A stretch of 6,799 nt of DNA. Origin: a virus (Duplodnaviria > Heunggongvirae > Uroviricota > Caudoviricetes). The DNA lies in the IMG/VR virus record IMGVR_UViG_2547132252_000010, positions 1 through 6,799 of that record; one strand, 5' to 3'. Position numbers and translations under genes: made by a program. The notes below the pieces were generated by a model. That model was not told where the DNA came from and made no database searches. It saw only the letters and a list, made by a program, of their open reading frames with translations. This document shows, in pieces, positions 1-6,799 of the stretch (the first letter of the stretch is position 1; every line of letters starts with the position of its first letter).

Positions 1-34
1 CCCGGGTTTCCTGGAGAGTGTTTTATCTGTGAAC

Positions 35-924
35 TCAGGCTGCCAGATCATCGTTTCCGATGGAAGCATAATAAGCTTTTTCTGCTTCTGCCGGAGGAGT
101 ATGGCCCAGCCTTCCCAGCAATCGTCGATTGTTATACCAGTCCACCCACGTTAGTGTGGCCAGTTCCACTTCTGCACGGTTTTTCCAGCTCTTACGGTGT
201 ATTACCTCCGCTTTGTAAAGACCATTGATGCTCTCAGCCATCGCGTTGTCATACGAGTCGCCTGTACTCCCTGTTGATGCCAGTAATCCGGCTTCTTTTA
301 GTCGCTCCGTATAGGCCAGTGACACATACTGAGAGCCTTTATCGCTGTGATGGATGGTGCCAGACGGACGACGGGCCCACAACGCCTGCTCCAGCGCATC
401 CAGCACGAATGTCGTTTCCATAGACGATGAGACCCGCCACCCCACGATGTATCCGGCAAACACATCAATGATAAACGCCACATAGACGAAGCCCTGCCAT
501 GTGCTGACGTAAGTAAAATCAGCCACCCACAGCTGGTCAGGTCGTTCTGCCACGAACTGACGGTTTACGCGGTCGCCTGCGGCAACGGCTTTCCGGCTGA
601 TGGTCGTACGGACCTTTTTACCCCGGAGAACACCGGCAAGTCCCATAACCGCCATGAGACGTGCCACTGTACATCTGGCCACCTGATTCCTTCCCGTAAC
701 AACTGACGCCAGACTTTACGCACACCGTACACCTGATGATTTTCATCGTATACGCGCTGTATCTCTCTCTTCAGCCAGTCGTCGTGCTGCGCACGGGCAC
801 TGCGTTTATCCGGATGATGTCGCTGTTGCTGACAATGGTAATACGTTGACGGGGCAATATGCAGTTCGCTGCATACCGGTCCGACCCCGTACTGCTCACG
901 CAGCTTATCCAGCAGTGGCATCAT
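35..924 (-). pseudogene. IS3-family transposase OrfB (DDE integrase core), frame-disrupted: N-terminal part 565..924 and C-terminal DDE part 35..682 are in different frames
   Basis: IS3-family OrfB is normally one ORF of about 290-300 aa. Here the N-terminal segment ([16 protein letters not shown]...RQLLREGIR) and the DDE catalytic segment (VARCTVARLMAV...WVADFTY...HHSDKGSQY...ESINGLYKAEV...) sit in different frames and overlap across 565-682. The switch maps to about 682-683, where the minus strand reads atc agg tgg cc; one extra G (atc agg gtg gcc) would give the continuous REGIRVARCTV reading. Confidence 0.65.
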
Positions 925-1247
925 TTTTTCCAGAGGCGGTCGAACTCCGCCTTCGCAAAATAAGCGGAAGCCTGGCGAAGGATATCGTTACTGCGGCGCA
1001 GTTCACGATTTTCACGTTCCAGCTCTTTCAGACGCTGACGTTCAGCGCTGGTGAGCCCACCATCACCGCCCCCGGTATCCCGCTCATGCTGGCGAACCCA
1101 GACACGCAGAGTCTCCGGCGTACAGCCAATCTTTGGGGCAATGGAACAAATTGCCGCCCACTGTGAGTCATATTCATCCTGACTTTCCAGAACCATACGA
1201 ATCGCCCGCTGACGGACTTCGGGGGAAAAACGAGTATTTTTAGTCAT
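921..1247 (-). CDS. IS3-family transposase OrfA (HTH DNA-binding subunit), 108 aa
   Basis: [33 protein letters not shown]...[36 protein letters not shown] with an HTH followed by a leucine-zipper-like segment. Its stop overlaps the start of the orfB frame at a T6 run (plus-strand 924-929, A6 on the coding strand), the usual IS3-family -1 frameshift window. Confidence 0.9.
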
Positions 1248-1339
1248 CCTGTTTACCTCTTTCTCAGGGAGTTTAGTCTCCAGGATTTCCGGGGCGGTTC
1301 ACACCAAGTCTGGCCGCGAATTTCTTAGCATCACCAACC

Positions 1340-1467
1340 CTTAATGATTTAATAAACTCTTTTAATGTCATACCTTCCTCGGTTTAGTGTTTTTTGCGAG
1401 TTTAGTGTTTAATAAACCATTAAGTCAAGTATTTGCTTGTTTAGTGATTACTAAAGATAATTACCAC
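1340..1467 (+). promoter_or_regulatory. Candidate promoter-operator region of the TA operon: five direct repeats of TTTA(G/A)TG(A/T) with about 20-bp spacing, plus a sigma70-like -35/-10 pair placing the transcript start at or next to the ATG (leaderless)
   Basis: Repeat copies start near 1340, 1361, 1383, 1401 and 1440; longer forms are TTAATGATTTAATAAACT (1341-1358) and TTTAGTGTTTAATAAACC (1401-1418). TTGCTT at 1433-1438, a 17-bp spacer and GATAAT at 1456-1461 fit a promoter, and there is no Shine-Dalgarno before the ATG at 1468. Promoter and operator roles are inferred. Confidence 0.4.
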
Positions 1468-1838
1468 ATGCAAAAAAAGAAATTCGCCGTTTACGTCTCA
1501 AGGAGTGGTTTAAAGATAAAACTCTGCCACCCAAAGAGAAGAGCTACCTATCTCAACTAATGAGTGGGAGAGCCTCGTTTGGAGAAAAGGCTGCCAGAAG
1601 AATAGAGCAAACATACGGGATGCCGGAAGGGTATCTGGATGCGGAATACGCAGAACAACCGGGGGGTTCTCCACCACATGCAGGGTTAACGTCTAATCAA
1701 CTGGAATTATTGCAGATTTTTTCAGCCTTCCCTGAGGATGAGCAACGCCAGATAATCAGCGAGTTAAAGCAGAAAAAAGAATCAATGGAAGATCTCATAG
1801 CGAGATGGATTGCGGCGCAAAAATGCCGCCGCGCCTGA
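1468..1838 (+). CDS. paaR2: HTH transcriptional regulator of the TA operon (PaaR-like), reading frame offset at an A7 tract; the longest clean ORF is 1560..1838 (92 aa), but the HTH-encoding codons extend upstream to 1461 with no in-frame start
   Basis: Frame 0 from 1461 encodes LPHAKKEIRRLRLKEWFKDKTLPPKEKSYLSQLMSGRASFGEKAARRIEQTYGMPEGYLD..., a Cro/CI-type HTH, but has no ATG, GTG or TTG before M at 1560. The only upstream ATG (1468, atgcaaaaaaag) is in the +1 frame and stops after 30 codons at 1558-1560. One extra A in the A7 run 1472-1478 would give a continuous protein MQKKEIRRLRLKEWF... of about 123 aa. The symbol is by synteny with the recognised antitoxin and toxin genes. Confidence 0.55.
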
Positions 1839-1858
1839 GTTATAAAACCGGAGGAAAC

Positions 1859-2050
1859 ATGAATAGAGCCCTTTCACCAATGGTTTCTGAATTTGAAACC
1901 ATTGAACAAGAAAACAGTTACAACGAATGGCTGCGTGCGAAAGTAGCAACGAGCCTTGCAGATCCGCGCCCAGCAATTCCCCATGACGAAGTTGAGCGCA
2001 GAATGGCAGAACGCTTTGCTAAGATGCGCAAGGAACGGAGCAAGCAGTAA
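1859..2050 (+). CDS. paaA2: Small antitoxin of a ParE-type three-component TA system (PaaA2-like), 63 aa
   Basis: ATG at 1859 preceded by GGAGGA (1850-1855). The product MNRALSPMVSEFETIEQENSYNEWLRAKVATSLADPRPAIPHDEVERRMAERFAKMRKERSKQ is small, charged and helical, and matches my recollection of PaaA2. Its stop (2048-2050) lies 1 nt before the toxin ATG. Confidence 0.75.
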   Translation: MNRALSPMVSEFETIEQENSYNEWLRAKVATSLADPRPAIPHDEVERRMAERFAKMRKERSKQ

Positions 2051-2051
2051 A

Positions 2052-2330
2052 ATGTTACCCGTGTTATGGCTTGAAAGCGCAGATACCGACCTAGATGATA
2101 TAACTAGTTATATTGCTCGTTTCGACATAGATGCGGCTGAACGCTTATGGCAGCGATTAAGGGGTTGTGTGCTGCCGTTATCCGAACATCCGTATTTATA
2201 CCCACCAAGCGACAGAGTACCTGGCTTGCGTGAGATTGTAGCCCACCCTAACTATATAATTCTATACCGCGTAACAACATCAAGCGTTGAAGTAGTAAAC
2301 GTGATCCACGCAAGACGCCAGTTTCCCTAA
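2052..2330 (+). CDS. parE2: ParE/RelE-superfamily toxin (ParE2-like), 92 aa
   Basis: MLPVLWLESADTDLDDITSYIARFDIDAAERLWQRLRGCVLPLSEHPYLYPPSDRVPGLREIVAHPNYIILYRVTTSSVEVVNVIHARRQFP has the ParE-family pattern (D-x-x-I-x-x-YIA, RE-[IL]-V, YIILYRV). The start at 2052 is tightly coupled to the antitoxin stop; the in-frame ATG at 1956 would overlap paaA2 by 95 nt and is rejected. Confidence 0.85.
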   Translation: MLPVLWLESADTDLDDITSYIARFDIDAAERLWQRLRGCVLPLSEHPYLYPPSDRVPGLREIVAHPNYIILYRVTTSSVEVVNVIHARRQFP

Positions 2331-2350
2331 CTTTCACTACCAATAGAAAC

Positions 2351-2393
2351 ATAACAACCGCAACGACTTTATCAAAAGCGTTGTGTTTGTTAT
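2351..2393 (+). terminator. Candidate intrinsic terminator after the TA operon: 15-bp A/U-rich stem (one mismatch, one G-U) with a 13-nt loop and U-rich 3' arm
   Basis: ataacaaccgcaacg (2351-2365) pairs with cgttgtgtttgttat (2379-2393), starting 21 nt after the parE2 stop. The stem is atypically long and AT-rich, so the call is weak. Confidence 0.3.
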
Positions 2394-2400
2394 GTCCCGC

Positions 2401-2441
2401 GGTTTAGTTTTTACTTGGCTTAAGTTTAATGTTTATTAAAC
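2401..2441. repeat. Paralogous second copy of the operator-like block found upstream of the regulator
   Basis: GGTTTAGTTTTTACTTGGCTTAAGTTTAATGTTTATTAAAC (2401-2441) aligns with GGTTTAGTGTTTTTTGCGAGTTTAGTGTTTAATAAAC (1381-1417), sharing the GGTTTAGT head and the TTTA(A/G)TGTTTA(A/T)TAAAC core. Confidence 0.45.
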
Positions 2442-2680
2442 TAAAAATACCAACCACCCCGCCCCACAGAACGCAGGGAAATACTTCGAGTTACCCGGCA
2501 GTGGTCAGGGGTTAAGTAGCCAGCCCGAGGCGTATGAACATGACGGCAGGGTTCAACTTTAATAACTATGCAGCAGTTTTTTGTTCCGCTACCCCGGCGT
2601 TAAGGGGAAACAGAGGGTTTCTCAGTGGGCGAAGTCAAACATCAGAATGGAAGGCATCCCGGGATCGGCAAAGAAGCAGC

Positions 2681-2711
2681 AATGGCGCTTTATATTGACA
2701 TCAGCGCCATT
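2681..2711 (-). terminator. Possible terminator hairpin downstream of the minus-strand zinc-ribbon gene
   Basis: Perfect 9-bp inverted repeat AATGGCGCT (2681-2689) and AGCGCCATT (2703-2711) with a 13-nt loop, about 50 nt past the stop at 2760-2762. On the minus strand it is followed by GCUGCUUCUUUG, only moderately U-rich, and the loop is large. Confidence 0.2.
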
Positions 2712-2759
2712 GCAGGACAGGTAAGAGTTATCAGAGCGGTAACTAAGCGGTATGCGCCT

Positions 2760-2960
2760 TTACTTCAGAAAGTCTCTGGTGAGTGCACCGAAGATATTGT
2801 CAACGATTTCGTCATCGAACTGCGAGGACTCATCTTCAGTTACAAGGTGACCACAATTTTTGCAGATGGCTCCCGCGAAACTGTCAGAGCCCTGCGGCTT
2901 AAAGGATGTGTCAAAGACTTCGCCACCACATTCTGGGCAAGAAAACTTGATTGTATTCAT
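2760..2960 (-). CDS. Small C4 zinc-ribbon protein with acidic C-terminal tail, 66 aa
   Basis: The minus-strand ATG at 2960 is preceded by AGGA with an 8-nt spacer (gagAGGAaattggttATG). The product MNTIKFSCPECGGEVFDTSFKPQGSDSFAGAICKNCGHLVTEDESSQFDDEIVDNIFGALTRDFLK has C-P-E-C and C-K-N-C pairs about 21 residues apart, then an acidic tail. The overlapping plus-strand ORF 2625..2981 has no ribosome-binding site and is taken as antisense noise. Confidence 0.6.
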   Translation of the reverse strand: MNTIKFSCPECGGEVFDTSFKPQGSDSFAGAICKNCGHLVTEDESSQFDDEIVDNIFGALTRDFLK

Positions 2961-3052
2961 AACCAATTTCCTCTCGAGTAACAGACCCCTCAGAGGATAC
3001 CACCTCGCCTGACGTGGTTAAAAGCAGGCAACGCTAACCACAAGGAGCCGAC

Positions 3053-3271
3053 ATGCAGAAACGAGAACCCGTCATCATCGCGCCAGACTATACCGATGAT
3101 GAACTTTATGAGTGGATGCACCAGAAAATTAATGCAGCGCAGGATCTGAAATGGGCCAATGAAGCCAGGGCTAAGCAGGCTGAAAATCTGTCCGCTCTGG
3201 AGCAGGATATCACCAATCTGGAAAAAGCAGCGGCATTAAGCATTGCCAGAATGATTACATACCCGCGTTAA
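3053..3271 (+). CDS. Hypothetical small protein, 72 aa, predicted helical/coiled-coil
   Basis: ATG at 3053 is preceded by AAGGAG (3042-3047) with a 5-nt spacer. The product is MQKREPVIIAPDYTDDELYEWMHQKINAAQDLKWANEARAKQAENLSALEQDITNLEKAAALSIARMITYPR. It is divergent from the zinc-ribbon gene across a 92-bp intergenic region; no family recognised. Confidence 0.55.
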   Translation: MQKREPVIIAPDYTDDELYEWMHQKINAAQDLKWANEARAKQAENLSALEQDITNLEKAAALSIARMITYPR

Positions 3272-3627
3272 TAGCTAACCAACGAAGCTAAGGTTGGTAA
3301 TTAAGGAGTTCTCCACGGGTGAGGTGGAGTGCGTGCGCCGGACACGGGTGAGCATACGGCACTGACAGTTTACTGAAAGGATATTTCCCTGAAAAGTCAG
3401 ACCATAACGCGAAAGCGCACGGCGAGGTAGCTGGTTCATAGATAGCCTGTCGTTAAATTTTCGTCGACCGTGCGCTTCCGGTTGTGGCAATCCGCGAAAT
3501 GGCGCGGCGGTAAGTATGGAGGGGTTATTCCTTCCCCCGTTGAGGACACCGGGTTGTCAGGTTGACCATACGCTTAAGTGACAACCCCGCTGCAACGCCC
3601 TCTGTTATCAATTTTCTGGTGACGTTT

Positions 3628-3670
3628 GGCGGTATCAGTTTTACTCCGTGACTGCTCTGCCGCCCTTTTT
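3628..3670 (+). terminator. Candidate intrinsic terminator: GC-rich 7-bp basal stem (GGCGGUA/UGCCGCC) plus apical 4-bp stem, followed by CUUUUUAAA
   Basis: GGCGGTA (3628-3634) pairs with TGCCGCC (3658-3664), and CAGT (3636-3639) with ACTG (3651-3654); a T5 run follows at 3666-3670. It lies about 400 nt after the stop of the 72-aa gene and just before the 19-bp inverted repeat. Confidence 0.35.
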
Positions 3671-3674
3671 AAAG

Positions 3675-3822
3675 TGAATTTTGTGATGCGGTGAATGCGG
3701 CTGAGCGCACGCGGAACAGTTAAAACCAAAAACAGTGTTATGGGGGGATTCTCTGTATCCGGCGTTAATTGTTAACTGGTTAACGTCACCTGGAGGCACC
3801 AGGCACCGCATCACAAAATTCA
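3675..3822. repeat. 148-bp segment bounded by perfect 19-bp inverted repeats (TGAATTTTGTGATGCGGTG at 3675-3693; reverse complement at 3804-3822)
   Basis: Direct reading: the arms are exact reverse complements and the match stops at both boundaries. The 110-bp interior holds three GTTAA(C) repeats (3766-3784, including GTTAACTGGTTAAC at 3771-3784) and a tandem GGCACCAGGCACC (3795-3807). The right arm ends 17 nt before the ATG at 3840 and 5 nt before its GAGGA ribosome-binding site. Confidence 0.7.
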
Positions 3823-3839
3823 TTGTTGAGGACGCGATA

Positions 3840-4028
3840 ATGGAAACGTTATTACCAAACGTTAATACGTCTGAAGGTTGTTTTGAAATTGGTGTCACTA
3901 TCAGTAACCCTGTATTTACTGAAGATGCCATTAACAAGAGAAAACACGAACGGGAGCTATTAAATAAAATATGCATTCTTTCAATGCTGGCCCGTTTACG
4001 TCCGATACAAAAAGGATGCTGGCAATGA
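3840..4028 (+). CDS. Hypothetical small protein, 62 aa
   Basis: ATG at 3840 is preceded by GAGGA (3828-3832) with a 7-nt spacer. The product is METLLPNVNTSEGCFEIGVTISNPVFTEDAINKRKHERELLNKICILSMLARLRPIQKGCWQ. Its TGA stop (4026-4028) overlaps the next ATG (4025-4027) as ATGA, implying translational coupling. The longer track ORF from 3735 has no ribosome-binding site and would run through the inverted-repeat arm. Confidence 0.45.
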   Translation: METLLPNVNTSEGCFEIGVTISNPVFTEDAINKRKHERELLNKICILSMLARLRPIQKGCWQ

Positions 4029-4216
4029 ATACAGCATTTGCACTTGTTCTGACAGTTTTTCTTGTTTCCGGAGAGCCAGTTGATATTGCAGTCAGTGTTC
4101 ACAGGACAATGCAGGAGTGTGTGACTGCAGCAACCGAACAGAAAATTCCCGGTAACTGTTACCCGGTCGATAAAGTTATTCACCAGGATAATAACGAAAT
4201 CCCGGCAGGTCTTTAA
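4025..4216 (+). CDS. Hypothetical small membrane-associated protein, 63 aa, hydrophobic N-terminal segment
   Basis: ATG at 4025 is preceded by AAGGA with an 8-nt spacer (aaaAAGGAtgctggcaATG). The product MNTAFALVLTVFLVSGEPVDIAVSVHRTMQECVTAATEQKIPGNCYPVDKVIHQDNNEIPAGL has an uncharged hydrophobic stretch at residues 3-16 (one transmembrane helix or atypical signal) and two Cys. The alternative start at 3971 lacks a properly spaced Shine-Dalgarno. Confidence 0.45.
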   Translation: MNTAFALVLTVFLVSGEPVDIAVSVHRTMQECVTAATEQKIPGNCYPVDKVIHQDNNEIPAGL

Positions 4217-4308
4217 AACAGTTCCGTAATAAACATCCGATTTCATTCTTATATGCCAGCAATGGCAGGGATTTGTTCACCCTTAAATCTGTAATGAGGT
4301 AAAACAAA

Positions 4309-6780
4309 ATGAGTAAAGTCTTTATTTGCGCCGCCATTCCGGACGAACAGGCAATAAAGGAAGAAGGTGCCGTCGCTGTAGCCACTGCCATTGAAGCCGG
4401 TGATGAACGTCGCGCCCGCGCAAAATTTCACTGGCAATTCCTGGAACATTATCCGGCTGCTCAGGACTGCGCTTATAAATTTCTTGTTTGCGAGGATAAA
4501 CCCGGTATACCCCGCCCTGCCCTCGATTCCTGGGATGCTGAATATATGCAGGAAAACCGCTGGGATGAGGCGTCTGCTTCCTTTGTCCCGGTCGAGACTG
4601 AATCCGATCCGATGAACGTCACTTTTGACAACCTGGCCCCTGAAGTACAGAACGCTGTCATGGTTAAGTTCGACACATGTGAAAACATCACTGTTGATAT
4701 GGTGATTAGCGCACAGGAATTGTTGCAGGAAGACATGGCAACATTCGACGGCCATATCGTTGAAGCGTTGATGAAAATGCCAGAAGTTAACGCCATGTAT
4801 CCGGAGCTTAAGCTGCATGCCATCGGGTGGGTTAAGCATAAATGTAAGCCTGGTGCCAAATGGCCCGAAATTCAGGCAGAGATGCGCATCTGGAAAAAAC
4901 GTCGCGAAGGTGAACGCAAGGAAGCCGGAAAATACACGTCTGTTGTTGATCTCGCCCGCGCCAGAGCCAATCAACAGCACACTGAAAATTCAACAGGAAA
5001 AATCAACCCGGTCATTGCTGCCATTCATCGCGAATACAAGCAGACATGGAAAACACTGGATGACGAACTGGCCTACGCTCTCTGGCCTGGTGATGTGGAT
5101 GCCGGAAACATTGACGGCAGCATCCATCGCTGGGCAAAAAATGAAGTTATCGACAACGGCCGCGAAGACTGGAAGCGTATCTCGGCATCAATGCGCAAAC
5201 AGCCTGATGCCCTTCGCTACGACCGCCAGACTATTTTTGGCCTTGTCCGTGAACGTCCGATCGACATTCACAAAGACCCTGTGGCACTGAACAAATACAT
5301 TACTGAATACCTGACTACAAAGGGCGTGTTTGAAGATGAAGGAACAAATCAGAGCGCAACTGACACTCTCTCGTCGCCAGTACCAGAAACTGATGCAGTG
5401 GAAACGGCAATTCCGGACAACGAAAAAACCGAATGCAAAGTGGAAGTCGAACCATCTGTAGAGCGTGAGGGGCCGTTCTACTTCCTCTTCACCGACAAGG
5501 ATGGCGAAAAATACGGTCGCGCAAACAAACTTTCTGGTCTGGATAAGGCGCTGGCTGCCGGGGCTACTGAAATCACAAAAGAAGAATATTTTGCCCGAAA
5601 AAATGGCACATACACAGGCTTACCGCAAAATGCAAATACCGCACAAAATTCTGAACAACCAGAACCGGTAAAAGTTACCGCTGACGAAGTAAAGAAAATT
5701 ATGCAGGCAGCCAATATCAGCCAGCCTGACGCCAATCAGTTGCTCGCCGCATCACGTGGTGAATTTGTTGCAGGGATTAGCGACCCGAATGATCCGAAAT
5801 GGGTGAAGGGGATTGAAACCCGCGATTCTGTGAACCAGAACCAGCAAGAAACGGAACAGAACGACCAGAAAGCGGAACAAAACAGCCCAAATACGCAACA
5901 AAACGAGCCAGAAACGAAACAACCTGAGCCAGTAGCGCAACAGGAACCGGAAAAAGTCTGCACCGCCTGCGGTCAGACCGGCGGCGGCAACTGCCCTGAT
6001 TGTGGCGCGGTGATGGGCGACGCAACATACCAGGAAACATTCGATGAAGAGTATCAGGTTGAAGTTCAGGAAGATGATCCGGAGGAAATGGAAGGCGCTG
6101 AACATCCACACAAGGAGAACACTGACGGCAATCAGCATCACGATAGCGATAATGAAACTGGCGAGACGGCAGATCACTCAATTAAGGTGAACGGTCATCA
6201 AGAAATCACATCCACCAGCAGGACGTGTGACCATCTAATGATCGACCTTGAAACCATGGGAAAAAATCCTGATGCCCCGATCATCTCAATAGGTGCAATA
6301 TTTTTCGATCCGCAAACCGGAGATATGGGACCGGAATTTAGTAAGACTATCGATCTGGAAACTGCTGGCGGGGTCATTGATCGGGACACCATTAAATGGT
6401 GGCTTAAGCAATCACGCGAAGCGCAATCTGCCATTATGACCGATGAAATCCCGTTAGATGATGCACTATTACAATTGCGGGAATTTATCGACGAAAACTC
6501 CGGTGAATTTTTTGTTCAGGTCTGGGGAAATGGAGCCAACTTCGACAACACGATTTTGCGCCGTTCATACGAACGGCAGGGGATCCCCTGCCCGTGGCGT
6601 TACTACAACGATCGCGATGTACGCACAATCGTTGAGCTGGGGAAAGCCATAGACTTCGATGCCAGAACGGCTATTCCATTCGAAGGTGAGCGCCATAATG
6701 CACTTGATGACGCCCGTTACCAGGCAAAATACGTTTCAGTTATCTGGCAAAAACTGATCCCGAATCAGGCTGATTTTTAA
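4309..6780 (+). CDS. Prophage recombination-type exonuclease, 823 aa: long N-terminal and linker region (RecE-like by recollection) with an internal C4 zinc ribbon, fused to a C-terminal DEDDh (DnaQ/ExoX-like) 3'-5' exonuclease domain
   Basis: ATG at 4309 is preceded by GAGGT with an 8-nt spacer. The C-terminal domain (from about M644, nt 6238) carries the three DEDDh motifs: Exo I MIDLETMG (D-x-E), Exo II WGNGANFD, Exo III HNALDDARYQAKY (H-x4-D). Upstream are a C-x2-C-x21-C-x2-C zinc ribbon (codons 551-565, nt 5959-6003) and an acidic Q/N/E/P-rich low-complexity linker. The middle region (LLAASRGEFVAGISDPNDPKWVKGI...CTACGQTGGGNCPDCGAVMGDATYQETFDEE) matches my memory of central RecE; this is unverified. 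Confidence 0.9.
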   Translation: MSKVFICAAIPDEQAIKEEGAVAVATAIEAGDERRARAKFHWQFLEHYPAAQDCAYKFLVCEDKPGIPRPALDSWDAEYMQENRWDEASASFVPVETESDPMNVTFDNLAPEVQNAVMVKFDTCENITVDMVISAQELLQEDMATFDGHIVEALMKMPEVNAMYPELKLHAIGWVKHKCKPGAKWPEIQAEMRIWKKRREGERKEAGKYTSVVDLARARANQQHTENSTGKINPVIAAIHREYKQTWKTLDDELAYALWPGDVDAGNIDGSIHRWAKNEVIDNGREDWKRISASMRKQPDALRYDRQTIFGLVRERPIDIHKDPVALNKYITEYLTTKGVFEDEGTNQSATDTLSSPVPETDAVETAIPDNEKTECKVEVEPSVEREGPFYFLFTDKDGEKYGRANKLSGLDKALAAGATEITKEEYFARKNGTYTGLPQNANTAQNSEQPEPVKVTADEVKKIMQAANISQPDANQLLAASRGEFVAGISDPNDPKWVKGIETRDSVNQNQQETEQNDQKAEQNSPNTQQNEPETKQPEPVAQQEPEKVCTACGQTGGGNCPDCGAVMGDATYQETFDEEYQVEVQEDDPEEMEGAEHPHKENTDGNQHHDSDNETGETADHSIKVNGHQEITSTSRTCDHLMIDLETMGKNPDAPIISIGAIFFDPQTGDMGPEFSKTIDLETAGGVIDRDTIKWWLKQSREAQSAIMTDEIPLDDALLQLREFIDENSGEFFVQVWGNGANFDNTILRRSYERQGIPCPWRYYNDRDVRTIVELGKAIDFDARTAIPFEGERHNALDDARYQAKYVSVIWQKLIPNQADF

Positions 6781-6799
6781 TGTTCAACCCCGGTCGTTG
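6780..6799 (+). CDS. 5' end of the next gene (MFNPGR...), start overlapping the exonuclease stop in TAATG; truncated by the window end
   Basis: ATG at 6780-6782 overlaps TAA at 6778-6780, a typical coupled arrangement. Only 6 codons are visible, so this is based on position alone. Confidence 0.25.

Follow-up and report, generated by a model that had tools for sequence, protein, structure and literature searches.

The stretch of DNA analyzed here (6,799 nucleotides; below, the window) contains three co-directional plus-strand genes, located between positions 1468 and 2330, which sequence comparison identifies as paaR2-paaA2-parE2, the three-component ParE-type toxin-antitoxin (TA) system of Escherichia coli O157:H7. 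PaaR2-PaaA2-ParE2 is an already known and well-studied system, for which crystal structures and a detailed regulatory study are available. With good probability, the window contains the known operon as part of a prophage immunity region, that of a cryptic lambdoid prophage of the CP-933P/Sp12 type; a shortened A-run (A7) at the beginning of paaR2 is likely a miscall, and the module is probably intact. The following features were distinguished:

1-1301, minus strand: IS629/IS1203 (IS3 family), almost complete, truncated where the window begins (annotated as IS1203 in matching genomes)
850-966: ALIL frameshift pseudoknot of IS629 (Rfam ALIL, 121.5 bits)
921-1247: orfA of IS629
1302-1371, minus strand: 5′ remnant of ydaS, the Cro analogue, 23 codons (MTLKEFIKSLRVGDAKKFAARLG), aligned with the intact ydaS of TW14588 (locus L003, positions 2269-2571) and with IS-bearing genomes
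1372-1467, no strand assigned: divergent promoter/operator region, OR analogue (repeats, promoter scan)
1468-1838, plus strand: paaR2, leaderless gene of a CI-analogue repressor, reading frame broken (translations, alignments, match to PDB 7NKV)
1859-2050, plus strand: paaA2, 63-aa antitoxin, intact (PDB, Pfam and NCBIfam matches)
2052-2330, plus strand: parE2, 92-aa ParE-family toxin, intact (PDB and Pfam matches)
2349-2395, plus strand: stem-loop 3′ of parE2, with 22-nt arms and a 3-nt loop (inverted repeat, RNA fold)
2400-2447, plus strand: OL/PL933P analogue (repeats, allele comparison)

An earlier note on this DNA had described three plus-strand genes, with a 63-aa antitoxin and a 92-aa toxin separated by a 1-nt gap, and these coordinates hold. 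paaA2 is preceded by a Shine-Dalgarno sequence (GGAGGA, 1850-1855), and between its TAA stop codon (2048-2050) and the ATG of parE2 (2052) lies a single nucleotide, A2051. The predicted toxin is identical in 92 of 92 residues to PDB 5CW7 chain B (E 7e-60), residues 2-63 of the antitoxin are 100% identical to PaaA2 of PDB 3ZBE/5CW7 (E 5.5e-37), and the PaaR2 frame is identical to the PaaR2 N-terminal domain of PDB 7NKV (E 8e-40). The matches of all three products to PDB chains are well beyond chance expectation. The paaR-paaA-parE architecture and PaaA2-like antitoxin proposed in the note were thus confirmed, as was its statement that the system is of a known type, the proteins being identical to structurally solved ones. 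The locus is present in 593 of the 5426 complete E. coli genomes, mostly at ≥99% identity.

Profile searches led to the same assignments. The only Pfam match of PaaA2 is PF21217 (70.7 bits; cut-off 27), and it also matches NCBIfam NF050103 (84 bits; cut-off 50); the protein is small, has no DNA-binding domain and is encoded directly upstream of the toxin gene, as in PaaA2-type antitoxins. ParE2 matches Pfam PF05016 (ParE_toxin) over profile positions 1-89 of 89 with 60.9 bits (cut-off 23), as expected from the ParE/RelE membership suggested earlier, while its score against NCBIfam RelE_StbE is below threshold (21.4 against 27.9). Its ParE fold follows from the residue identity to the crystallised 5CW7 chain B. 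In the case of PaaR2, Pfam yielded a sub-threshold HTH_31 match alone (E 0.063), and the HTH assignment was made because of the identity to the solved N-terminal domain (7NKV) and the published description (PMC8630535). The C-terminus of PaaR2 is similar to that of DicA (E 1.4e-6), the protein of the Qin prophage.

The closest known system is that of prophage CP-933P of E. coli O157:H7 EDL933 (Sakai Sp12). PaaA2 and ParE2 are 100% identical to their counterparts there, the paaR2 coding sequence is the same save for the A-run, and the two loci agree in gene order and spacing, in their operators and in the genes that lie downstream. The window differs in having A7 for A8 at paaR2 codons 2-4, T6 for T7 in the operator spacer, TTGGCT instead of TTGACT as the PL −35 hexamer, and IS629 in ydaS, 70 nt from the start codon. 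Structures (3ZBE; 5CW7/5CZE/5CZF; 7NKV/8C3K/8C3L) and a study of regulation (PMC8630535) are available for the CP-933P system. A homologue with the same three-component architecture, PaaR1-PaaA1-ParE1, is carried by prophage CP-933M of the same strain (PMC8630535); the window proteins are identical to those of the "2" system, which is set apart from this "1" paralogue by description. Classical ParD-ParE pairs (RK2 plasmid; Caulobacter ParE1, 3KXE; Mesorhizobium, 5CEG; M. tuberculosis ParE1, 8C24) share with the window system the ParE fold (PF05016), the addiction logic and a labile antitoxin, and ParE2 gives weak but significant sequence matches to them (E 4e-5 to 3e-3). However, classical ParD contains a ribbon-helix-helix DNA-binding domain and the operon is autoregulated, whereas PaaA2 has no such domain and the repressor is encoded by a separate gene.

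The properties of the identical proteins have been described previously. ParE2 is a ParE-fold, nucleoid-associated toxin that triggers the SOS response; inhibition of gyrase has not been demonstrated for it (PMC8630535). PaaA2 is small and largely disordered, and wraps ParE2 into an inert complex (PMC8630535). PaaA2 is degraded by ClpAP and ClpXP, so that the toxin is set free when the locus is lost (post-segregational addiction), and since PaaA2 has no DNA-binding domain, transcription is controlled by PaaR2. The latter, an analogue of lambda CI, is translated from a leaderless message and forms octamers. Bound to GTTTAGT-type operators at OR and OL, it represses PR933P and PL933P; at low level it activates its own promoter PRM933P, and its competitor in a bistable switch is YdaS, the Cro analogue (PMC8630535). 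Reference 8 of PMC8630535 reported, for identical proteins, toxicity of the toxin alone and its neutralisation by the product of the upstream gene; plasmid stabilisation was reported in PMC8630535 itself.

The earlier note regarded the module as a landmark of an accessory region. This description does not fit: according to published work, the locus serves the cryptic lambdoid prophage CP-933P/Sp12 as its immunity region, where PaaR2 acts as the CI analogue on PR, PRM and PL, and the OR, OL and PL operators flank the operon (PMC8630535). The corresponding layout is recognizable in the window: the ydaS remnant (1302-1371), a multi-operator intergenic region, and a downstream operator/promoter set, with PR-like and PL-like hexamers. 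The OR-analogue region is 96 bp long, compared with the published 97 bp, and contains GTTTAGT half-sites at 1382, 1400 and 1439. This heptamer occurs five times in the window (0.69 expected; none of 200 shuffles reached five), clustered at 1382-1445 and 2402. Operator footprints, 5′RACE data and the consensus GTTTAGTAA have been published (PMC8630535). Judging from the sequence, the predicted PRM933P comprises TTGCTT (1433-1438), a 17-nt spacer and GATAAT (1456-1461), with a putative +1 at A1468, and the predicted PR933P, on the minus strand, comprises TTGACT (1428-1423), an 18-nt spacer and TAAACT (1404-1399).

The OL/PL analogue downstream of the operon contains a GTTTAGT half-site (2402), inverted repeats (2403-2445), and −35 (TTGGCT, 2415-2420) and −10 (TAAACT, 2437-2442) hexamers directed rightward, toward ydfC-dicF-dicB. 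The published PL933P has the same hexamers as PR933P and is repressed about 100-fold by PaaR2 and YdaS (PMC8630535). Within the −35 hexamer of the window, position 2418 is G; TW14588 and those IMG/VR loci that lack the IS have A there (TTGACT). Between parE2 and this region, the hairpin at 2349-2395 (−21.7 kcal/mol, z = −5.6) is more stable than the folds of all 200 shuffled sequences. By analogy with t-imm of lambda, it may constitute the transcript end or terminator element of the operon; it has no U-tract, and was missed by a generic terminator scan because of the missing T-run.

In its organization the locus resembles the immunity region of lambda (cI-rexA-rexB, cro, cII, OR/OL) and the DicA/DicC/dicB region of Qin: a leaderless repressor gene is followed by "passenger" genes, a divergent cro-like gene lies across a multi-operator region of ~97 bp, and a second operator set accompanies a downstream promoter reading into division-inhibitor genes (dicF, dicB). 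With Qin there is the additional resemblance between the C-termini of PaaR2 and DicA. In contrast to lambda, the PaaR2 system has four operator repeats rather than three, a TA pair takes the place of rexAB as its passengers, and PaaR2 has no S24 peptidase domain and is therefore not RecA-cleavable (PMC8630535).

Both elements of the neighborhood named in the earlier note, a prophage and an adjacent IS element, were found: the operon is followed by ydfC, DicF, dicB, ydfD and an exonuclease gene, and IS629/IS1203 ends at position 1301, with the terminal sequence GGGGCGGTTCA at 1291-1301. The orfB frame of this element is broken at about position 682 by a C3-to-C2 deletion (relative to Rafaela_II). 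The junction of IS629 with ydaS (1301/1302) occurs in just 7-9 of the 5426 complete genomes. The window as a whole is a mosaic, in which positions 1-5363 are identical to the IS-bearing O157 lineage save for three 1-nt deletions, and positions 5160-6799 are identical to TW14588; no match to the full window was found among complete E. coli genomes (best 98.9%) or 46 IMG/VR contigs.

An intact Cro/CII arm (ydaS-ydaT with PRE) is not present in the window, where IS629 interrupts ydaS behind codon 23. The YdaT operator TTGATTTTCATGAATCAA, which occupies positions 2262-2279 of the intact locus L003, does not occur in the window; related genomes have it on the far side of the IS. The insertion has also parted ydaT and PRE933P from the operon. 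With ydaS truncated and these two separated, the Cro/CII arm would be disabled and, as suggested by plasmid reporter mutants, the switch in the IS629 lineage would be locked in the PaaR2-on ("lysogenic", TA-on) state.

The first gene had been described as encoding an HTH regulator. The paaR2 sequence is indeed present, but the ORF starting at ATG 1468 is not intact. Its frame reads MQKKKFAVYVSRSGLKIKLCHPKRRATYLN, 30 codons in all, up to a stop codon (1558-1560), and from residue E5 on, PaaR2 (EIRRLRLKEWF...QKCRRA) is encoded in another frame, at 1479-1838. The N-terminus of PaaR2, MQKKE, has been established experimentally (PMC8630535). The frame is broken after codon 4 because the A-run at 1472-1478 is A7, one base shorter than the A8 of reference genomes.

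A8 is found in 590 of the 593 complete E. coli genomes carrying the locus; the three with A7, in which PGAP annotated a shortened gene, all belong to one pig ETEC clone. A7 was also detected in 4 of the 46 IMG/VR contigs, these being derived from older draft genomes, so that draft-derived contigs show A7 ~17 times as often as complete genomes do. A search of the IMG/VR loci for A9 alleles found none. A7 occurs on at least three different genetic backgrounds; such recurrence is also expected of a slippage-prone tract. In the operator region just upstream of paaR2, the T-run at 1390-1395 is T6, compared with T7 in most genomes (T6 in 7 of 593 complete genomes). Among the complete genomes searched, none combines T6 with A7.

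Several observations suggest that A7 is probably a homopolymer under-call in the source assembly, and paaR2 not a proven pseudogene. Relative to the closest genome, positions 1-5363 contain no substitutions and just three 1-nt deletions, all in homopolymers. Over the whole window, the closest reference has exactly two runs of at least 7 nt (T7 and A8), each one base shorter here, and its thirteen 6-nt runs are all unchanged. A 70-nt A7 query was matched at ≤98.6%, never at 100%, by all seven complete genomes in which this IS junction is found in one piece, and direct reading of two loci (L001 and L002) gave A8. If A7 is an under-call, as is likely, the module of the strain is probably intact and functional. 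The length of the T-run does vary in nature, its T6, T7 and T8 alleles following haplotypes among the IMG/VR loci, and the T6 difference could be real. The possibility that the draft contigs with A7 are generally indel-rich was also considered. Two of them (L005 and L006) have no other indels over the ~3 kb comparable and are therefore not generally error-ridden; this does not discriminate between the readings.

It is less likely, though conceivable, that the frameshift is real and paaR2 a pseudogene which, with ydaS destroyed by IS629, would leave neither repressor of the switch. PRM933P, PR933P and PL933P would then be unregulated, transcription from PR933P would enter the transposase genes of IS629, and paaA2-parE2 would be a constitutive two-gene addiction pair without a regulator. 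The sequence as given, with the ATG-1468 frame ending after 30 codons, speaks for this, as does the presence of A7 in the three complete pig ETEC genomes and four IMG/VR contigs; moreover, both operons were highly expressed in a paaR2 ydaS double mutant reporter (PMC8630535). Such a combination would, however, probably be harmful, since by analogy with DicA/DicB of Qin the loss of both PaaR2 and YdaS is expected to derepress PL933P toward dicF and dicB, although the weakened PL −35 of the lineage (TTGGCT vs TTGACT) could make derepression tolerable. Further arguments against a genuine A7 are the contraction of both sole homopolymers of ≥7 nt together with the C3-to-C2 change, at zero substitutions in 5.36 kb, the excess of A7 in draft-derived contigs, and the A8 of L001 and L002 together with the mismatch of the seven IS-junction genomes to the A7 query.

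Some prophage-borne TA systems defend against phages. This general knowledge, and the placement of the TA pair, positioned like rexAB beside cI in lambda (PMC8630535), are the grounds for supposing that the module is mainly an anti-phage abortive-infection system, and not one of addiction or stabilisation. This appears very unlikely: the three proteins gave no match in PADLOC at E ≤0.01, none of the retrieved papers reports a phage-defence assay of paaR2-paaA2-parE2, and the published data demonstrate plasmid stabilisation by post-segregational killing, with the toxin not activated in either transcriptional state (PMC8630535). Of the earlier wording, "addiction or abortive-infection-type module", the first half stands and the second finds no support here, either in PADLOC or in the published data.

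Hardly credible is the proposal that the A-run at codons 2-4 of leaderless paaR2 is a functional slippage site (a phase-variable DNA tract or a recoding site), making A7 a low-output allele and not a null one: the zero frame of A7 does read A_AAA_AAG, a dnaX/IS3-type −1 slippery heptamer and one of the most shift-prone in E. coli (PMC4066793), at which a −1 shift, or an extra A from RNA polymerase, restores exactly the wild-type MQKK-EIRRL..., A7 arose on at least three backgrounds, and low PaaR2 suffices to repress PR and PL and to activate PRM (PMC8630535), but heptamers without a stimulator reach at most ~10 times the 0.055% background, i.e. ~0.5% or less (PMC4066793), no stimulatory structure follows the site (RNA fold z = −0.57), the leaderless mRNA has no space for an upstream SD-like element, and the retention of A8 in 590 of 593 complete genomes, with no A9 found, gives no sign of on/off switching in the population. 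Programmed −1 frameshifting was thus rejected as a significant source of rescue on the basis of this rate and the lack of stable downstream RNA structure. It is similarly very doubtful that A8 is naturally slippage-prone and that A7 turns the repressor down rather than off, or off in rare lineages; if true, a single homopolymer would control both the prophage immunity switch and expression of the embedded TA pair.

As a discovery the locus is of small value, the system already having crystal structures and a regulatory study. It does matter for annotation: from this sequence an ORF caller would give a 30-aa stub and an N-terminally truncated "hypothetical protein", missing the prophage repressor. 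A caution is that regulator pseudogenes in TA loci can be mimicked by homopolymer miscalls. As regards the biology of the prophage, the window documents a natural variant: in a small sublineage of O157:H7, a bistable prophage switch has lost its Cro analogue to IS629. If confirmed, this lineage would provide a natural ydaS mutant for a chromosomal test of the published model, with the switch PaaR2-locked and the TA pair on.

The region 1468-2330 contains three genes, all co-directional on the plus strand. Judged by protein identities, profile matches and genome distribution, it is the published paaR2-paaA2-parE2 toxin-antitoxin (TA) system of prophage CP-933P/Sp12 itself, beyond mere resemblance. 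The features of the window are as follows.

Left 1301 bases: IS629/IS1203, with an ALIL pseudoknot at 850-966
1428-1399, minus: predicted PR-like promoter (TTGACT, 18 nt, TAAACT)
Upstream of 1468, plus: putative PRM-like promoter (TTGCTT, 17 nt, GATAAT), +1 at the A of ATG 1468
1468-1838, plus: paaR2, regulator gene
1859-2050, plus: paaA2, antitoxin gene (63 aa), Shine-Dalgarno GGAGGA at 1850-1855
2052-2330, plus: parE2, toxin gene (92 aa)
2349-2395: very stable hairpin 3' of parE2 (-21.7 kcal/mol, z -5.6)
2400-2447: predicted OL/PL-like element, -10 hexamer TAAACT shared with PR
3614-3665, plus: DicF sRNA (Rfam 76.7 bits, full length)
4309-6780: mosaic exonuclease gene (823 aa)

The toxin is identical to PDB 5CW7 chain B (92/92 residues, E 7e-60), and residues 2-63 of the antitoxin are identical to 3ZBE/5CW7 (E 5.5e-37). 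Pfam assigned the antitoxin to PaaA2 (PF21217; 70.7 bits, cut-off 27) and the toxin, as the earlier note had proposed, to the ParE family (ParE_toxin, PF05016; 60.9 bits, cut-off 23), while NCBIfam identified the antitoxin as a RelB-family equivalog (84 bits). All the sequence-testable characters of the ParE and PaaA2 families were found in the respective products. Of 5426 complete E. coli genomes, 593 (mostly O157:H7) carry the 1.16-kb locus, in 557 cases with at least 99% identity. When re-read in the window, the gene order, strand and paaA2/parE2 coordinates given in the earlier note proved correct, as did the single base between the antitoxin stop (TAA, 2048-2050) and the toxin ATG (2052). 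Its comparison with the paaR-paaA-parE architecture and its matching of the antitoxin to PaaA2 were borne out by identity of the PaaA2, ParE2 and PaaR2 sequences to PDB chains, and it rightly spoke of a known type, since this system is already known.

The HTH regulator gene placed at 1468 is present and PaaR2-identical, but in the sequence as given it has no intact ORF, because a run of seven A residues (A7) breaks the frame. The frame of ATG 1468 translates as MQKKKFAVYVSRSGLKIKLCHPKRRATYLN and stops at 1558-1560; the remaining regulator sequence (EIRRLRLKEWF...AAQKCRRA) lies in a different frame (1479-1838) and shares full sequence identity with the PaaR2 N-terminal domain solved by crystallography (7NKV/8C3K, E 8e-40; deposited as "Phage repressor protein CI"). 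The N-terminus of the wild-type protein (MQKKEIRR) was established by protein sequencing (PMC8630535). Alignment of positions 1300-2460 with O157:H7 E32511 revealed exactly two differences, both 1-nt homopolymer deletions, which were confirmed against strains TW14588 and Rafaela_II: one shortens T7 to T6 in the operator region (1390-1395), the other A8 to A7 in paaR2 codons 2-4 (1472-1478). The stub stop codon overlaps an ATG in the PaaR2 frame (TAATG, 1558-1562; wild-type Met32), and, speculatively, termination-reinitiation there could yield a 92-aa PaaR2 lacking half its DNA-binding domain. With intact PaaR2 as the query (TW14588 locus, L003, 2669-3040), the C-terminal oligomerisation part (residues 72-119) locally matched the DicA C-terminus (NCBIfam NF007257, E 1.4e-6, below the family cut-off), which would fit equivalent positions of paaR2 and dicA.

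According to Jurenas et al. (PMC8630535), CP-933P is a cryptic lambdoid prophage whose immunity region contains the operon. PaaR2, leaderless and octamerising, corresponds in function to lambda CI, repressing both PR933P and PL933P and, at low concentration, activating PRM933P. YdaS and YdaT, both divergently encoded, are the Cro and CII analogues (PMC8630535). The locus is bistable, with PaaR2 and YdaS competing at four GTTTAGTAA-type repeats within 97 bp of intergenic DNA; its TA pair causes addiction but is not activated by the transcriptional state (PMC8630535). In the window, this intergenic stretch measures 96 bp (1372-1467) and carries GTTTAGT at 1382, 1400 and 1439, with a further copy at 2402; the total of 5 copies (0.69 expected) was reached in 0/200 shuffles. 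The position of the putative PRM +1 is consistent with published 5'RACE. This anatomy, together with the published work, replaces the "landmark" of an accessory region with a prophage immunity region, of which every sequence-testable element was found except an intact Cro/CII arm. The window and the IS629-bearing O157 genomes (loci L001 and L002) have TTGGCT as PL -35 hexamer (2415-2420); the hexamer is TTGACT, identical to published PR933P, in TW14588 and in all IMG/VR loci in which the site could be located. G2418 is a possible PL down-mutation linked to the ydaS-disrupted lineage.

IS629 is inserted within ydaS, of which 23 codons remain (1302-1371), and this junction occurs in only 9 of 5426 complete genomes (7 as a single aligned piece), all O157:H7-like. 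The window lacks the YdaT operator TTGATTTTCATGAATCAA, which the intact locus carries at its ydaS/ydaT boundary (L003 2262-2279). Both observations indicate, at the sequence level, that IS629 removed YdaS and cut off PRE933P and ydaT from the operon. Compared with the Rafaela_II IS1203 copy, CCC to CC at 680-684 splits orfB into ORFs 35-682 and 565-924; the deletion is one more miscall, or else the IS copy is dead. The PR933P-like promoter (1399-1428, minus) reads via the 70-nt ydaS stub into IS629 in the transposase sense direction, so IS629 transcription at this site could be under PaaR2 control.

Downstream of the PL-like element lie ydfC, DicF, dicB, ydfD and the exonuclease gene. DicF is located between ydfC and dicB/ydfD (related spans 3053-3271, 3840-4028 and 4025-4216), an arrangement like that of the Qin prophage dicB operon. 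A small Cys-rich ORF (2760-2960, minus; CPECGG...CKNCG), named "ECs_2282 family putative zinc-binding protein" in RefSeq, is antisense to the PL-driven transcript. In the exonuclease mosaic, no substitutions separate window 1-5363 from the IS-bearing O157 lineage, TW14588 is matched exactly over 5160-6799, and clustered substitutions fall in 4752-5159 and 5364-6795 (68 versus the IS-bearing lineage, 19 versus TW14588). This points to prophage-allele recombination or chimeric assembly of repeated prophage DNA.

An under-called homopolymer is the most likely explanation of the paaR2 frameshift, and the case for it is good. Against Rafaela_II, the closest genome, window 1-5363 has 0 substitutions; its sole differences are three single-nucleotide deletions (C3 to C2 at 682 in IS629 orfB, T7 to T6 and A8 to A7). 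Across the window Rafaela_II has exactly two homopolymers of at least 7 nt, both contracted here, and 13/13 of its 6-nt runs are unchanged. A 70-nt query spanning the A-run, scored for perfect match among the 593 locus-bearing complete genomes, found A7 in only three, near-identical Belgian pig ETEC in which PGAP annotates a shortened gene. Among IMG/VR contigs there were four A7, 42 A8 and no A9 alleles, so A7 is much commoner among the contigs from older draft assemblies (4/46) than among complete genomes (3/593). It is the absence of substitutions, the contraction of both long runs and this excess that favour an under-call.

A true mutation is unlikely, even though A7 recurs on three backgrounds and the neighbouring T-run is truly polymorphic, since T6, T7 and T8 follow haplotypes across IMG/VR loci (T6 occurs in 7/593 complete genomes, 0 of them O157 and 0 with A7). 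If it were real, both repressors, PaaR2 and YdaS, would be absent and PL933P, directed toward dicF and dicB, derepressed. The DicA/DicB pair of Qin suggests by analogy that such a loss should be harmful, which casts further doubt on the call. The zero frame of the A7 allele, ATG CAA AAA AAG, places the classical -1 slippery heptamer (A_AAA_AAG) in register, and a -1 shift there regenerates exactly MQKK-EIRRL. Frameshift rescue would be marginal at most, because unstimulated heptamers reach at most about ten times the 0.055% background (PMC4066793), folding detected no stimulatory structure 3' of the heptamer (z -0.57) and the leaderless mRNA has no space for a stimulator upstream; a slippage-prone A-tract modulating a prophage repressor is highly improbable.

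The abortive-infection-type role suggested in the earlier note is unsupported: PADLOC models matched none of the three components, and the retrieved literature contained no evidence of abortive infection by paaR2-paaA2-parE2. The points specific to this sequence are minor variants, namely the A7/T6 contractions, IS629 in ydaS and G2418 in the PL -35. In a reporter, ydaS stop mutants lost the ydaST-on population (PMC8630535); if PaaR2 is intact, the IS629-bearing lineage should be permanently PaaR2-on and TA-expressing. Were the frameshift real, paaA2-parE2 would be transcribed constitutively, because both operons are highly expressed in the published double mutant (PMC8630535), and addiction would be retained.
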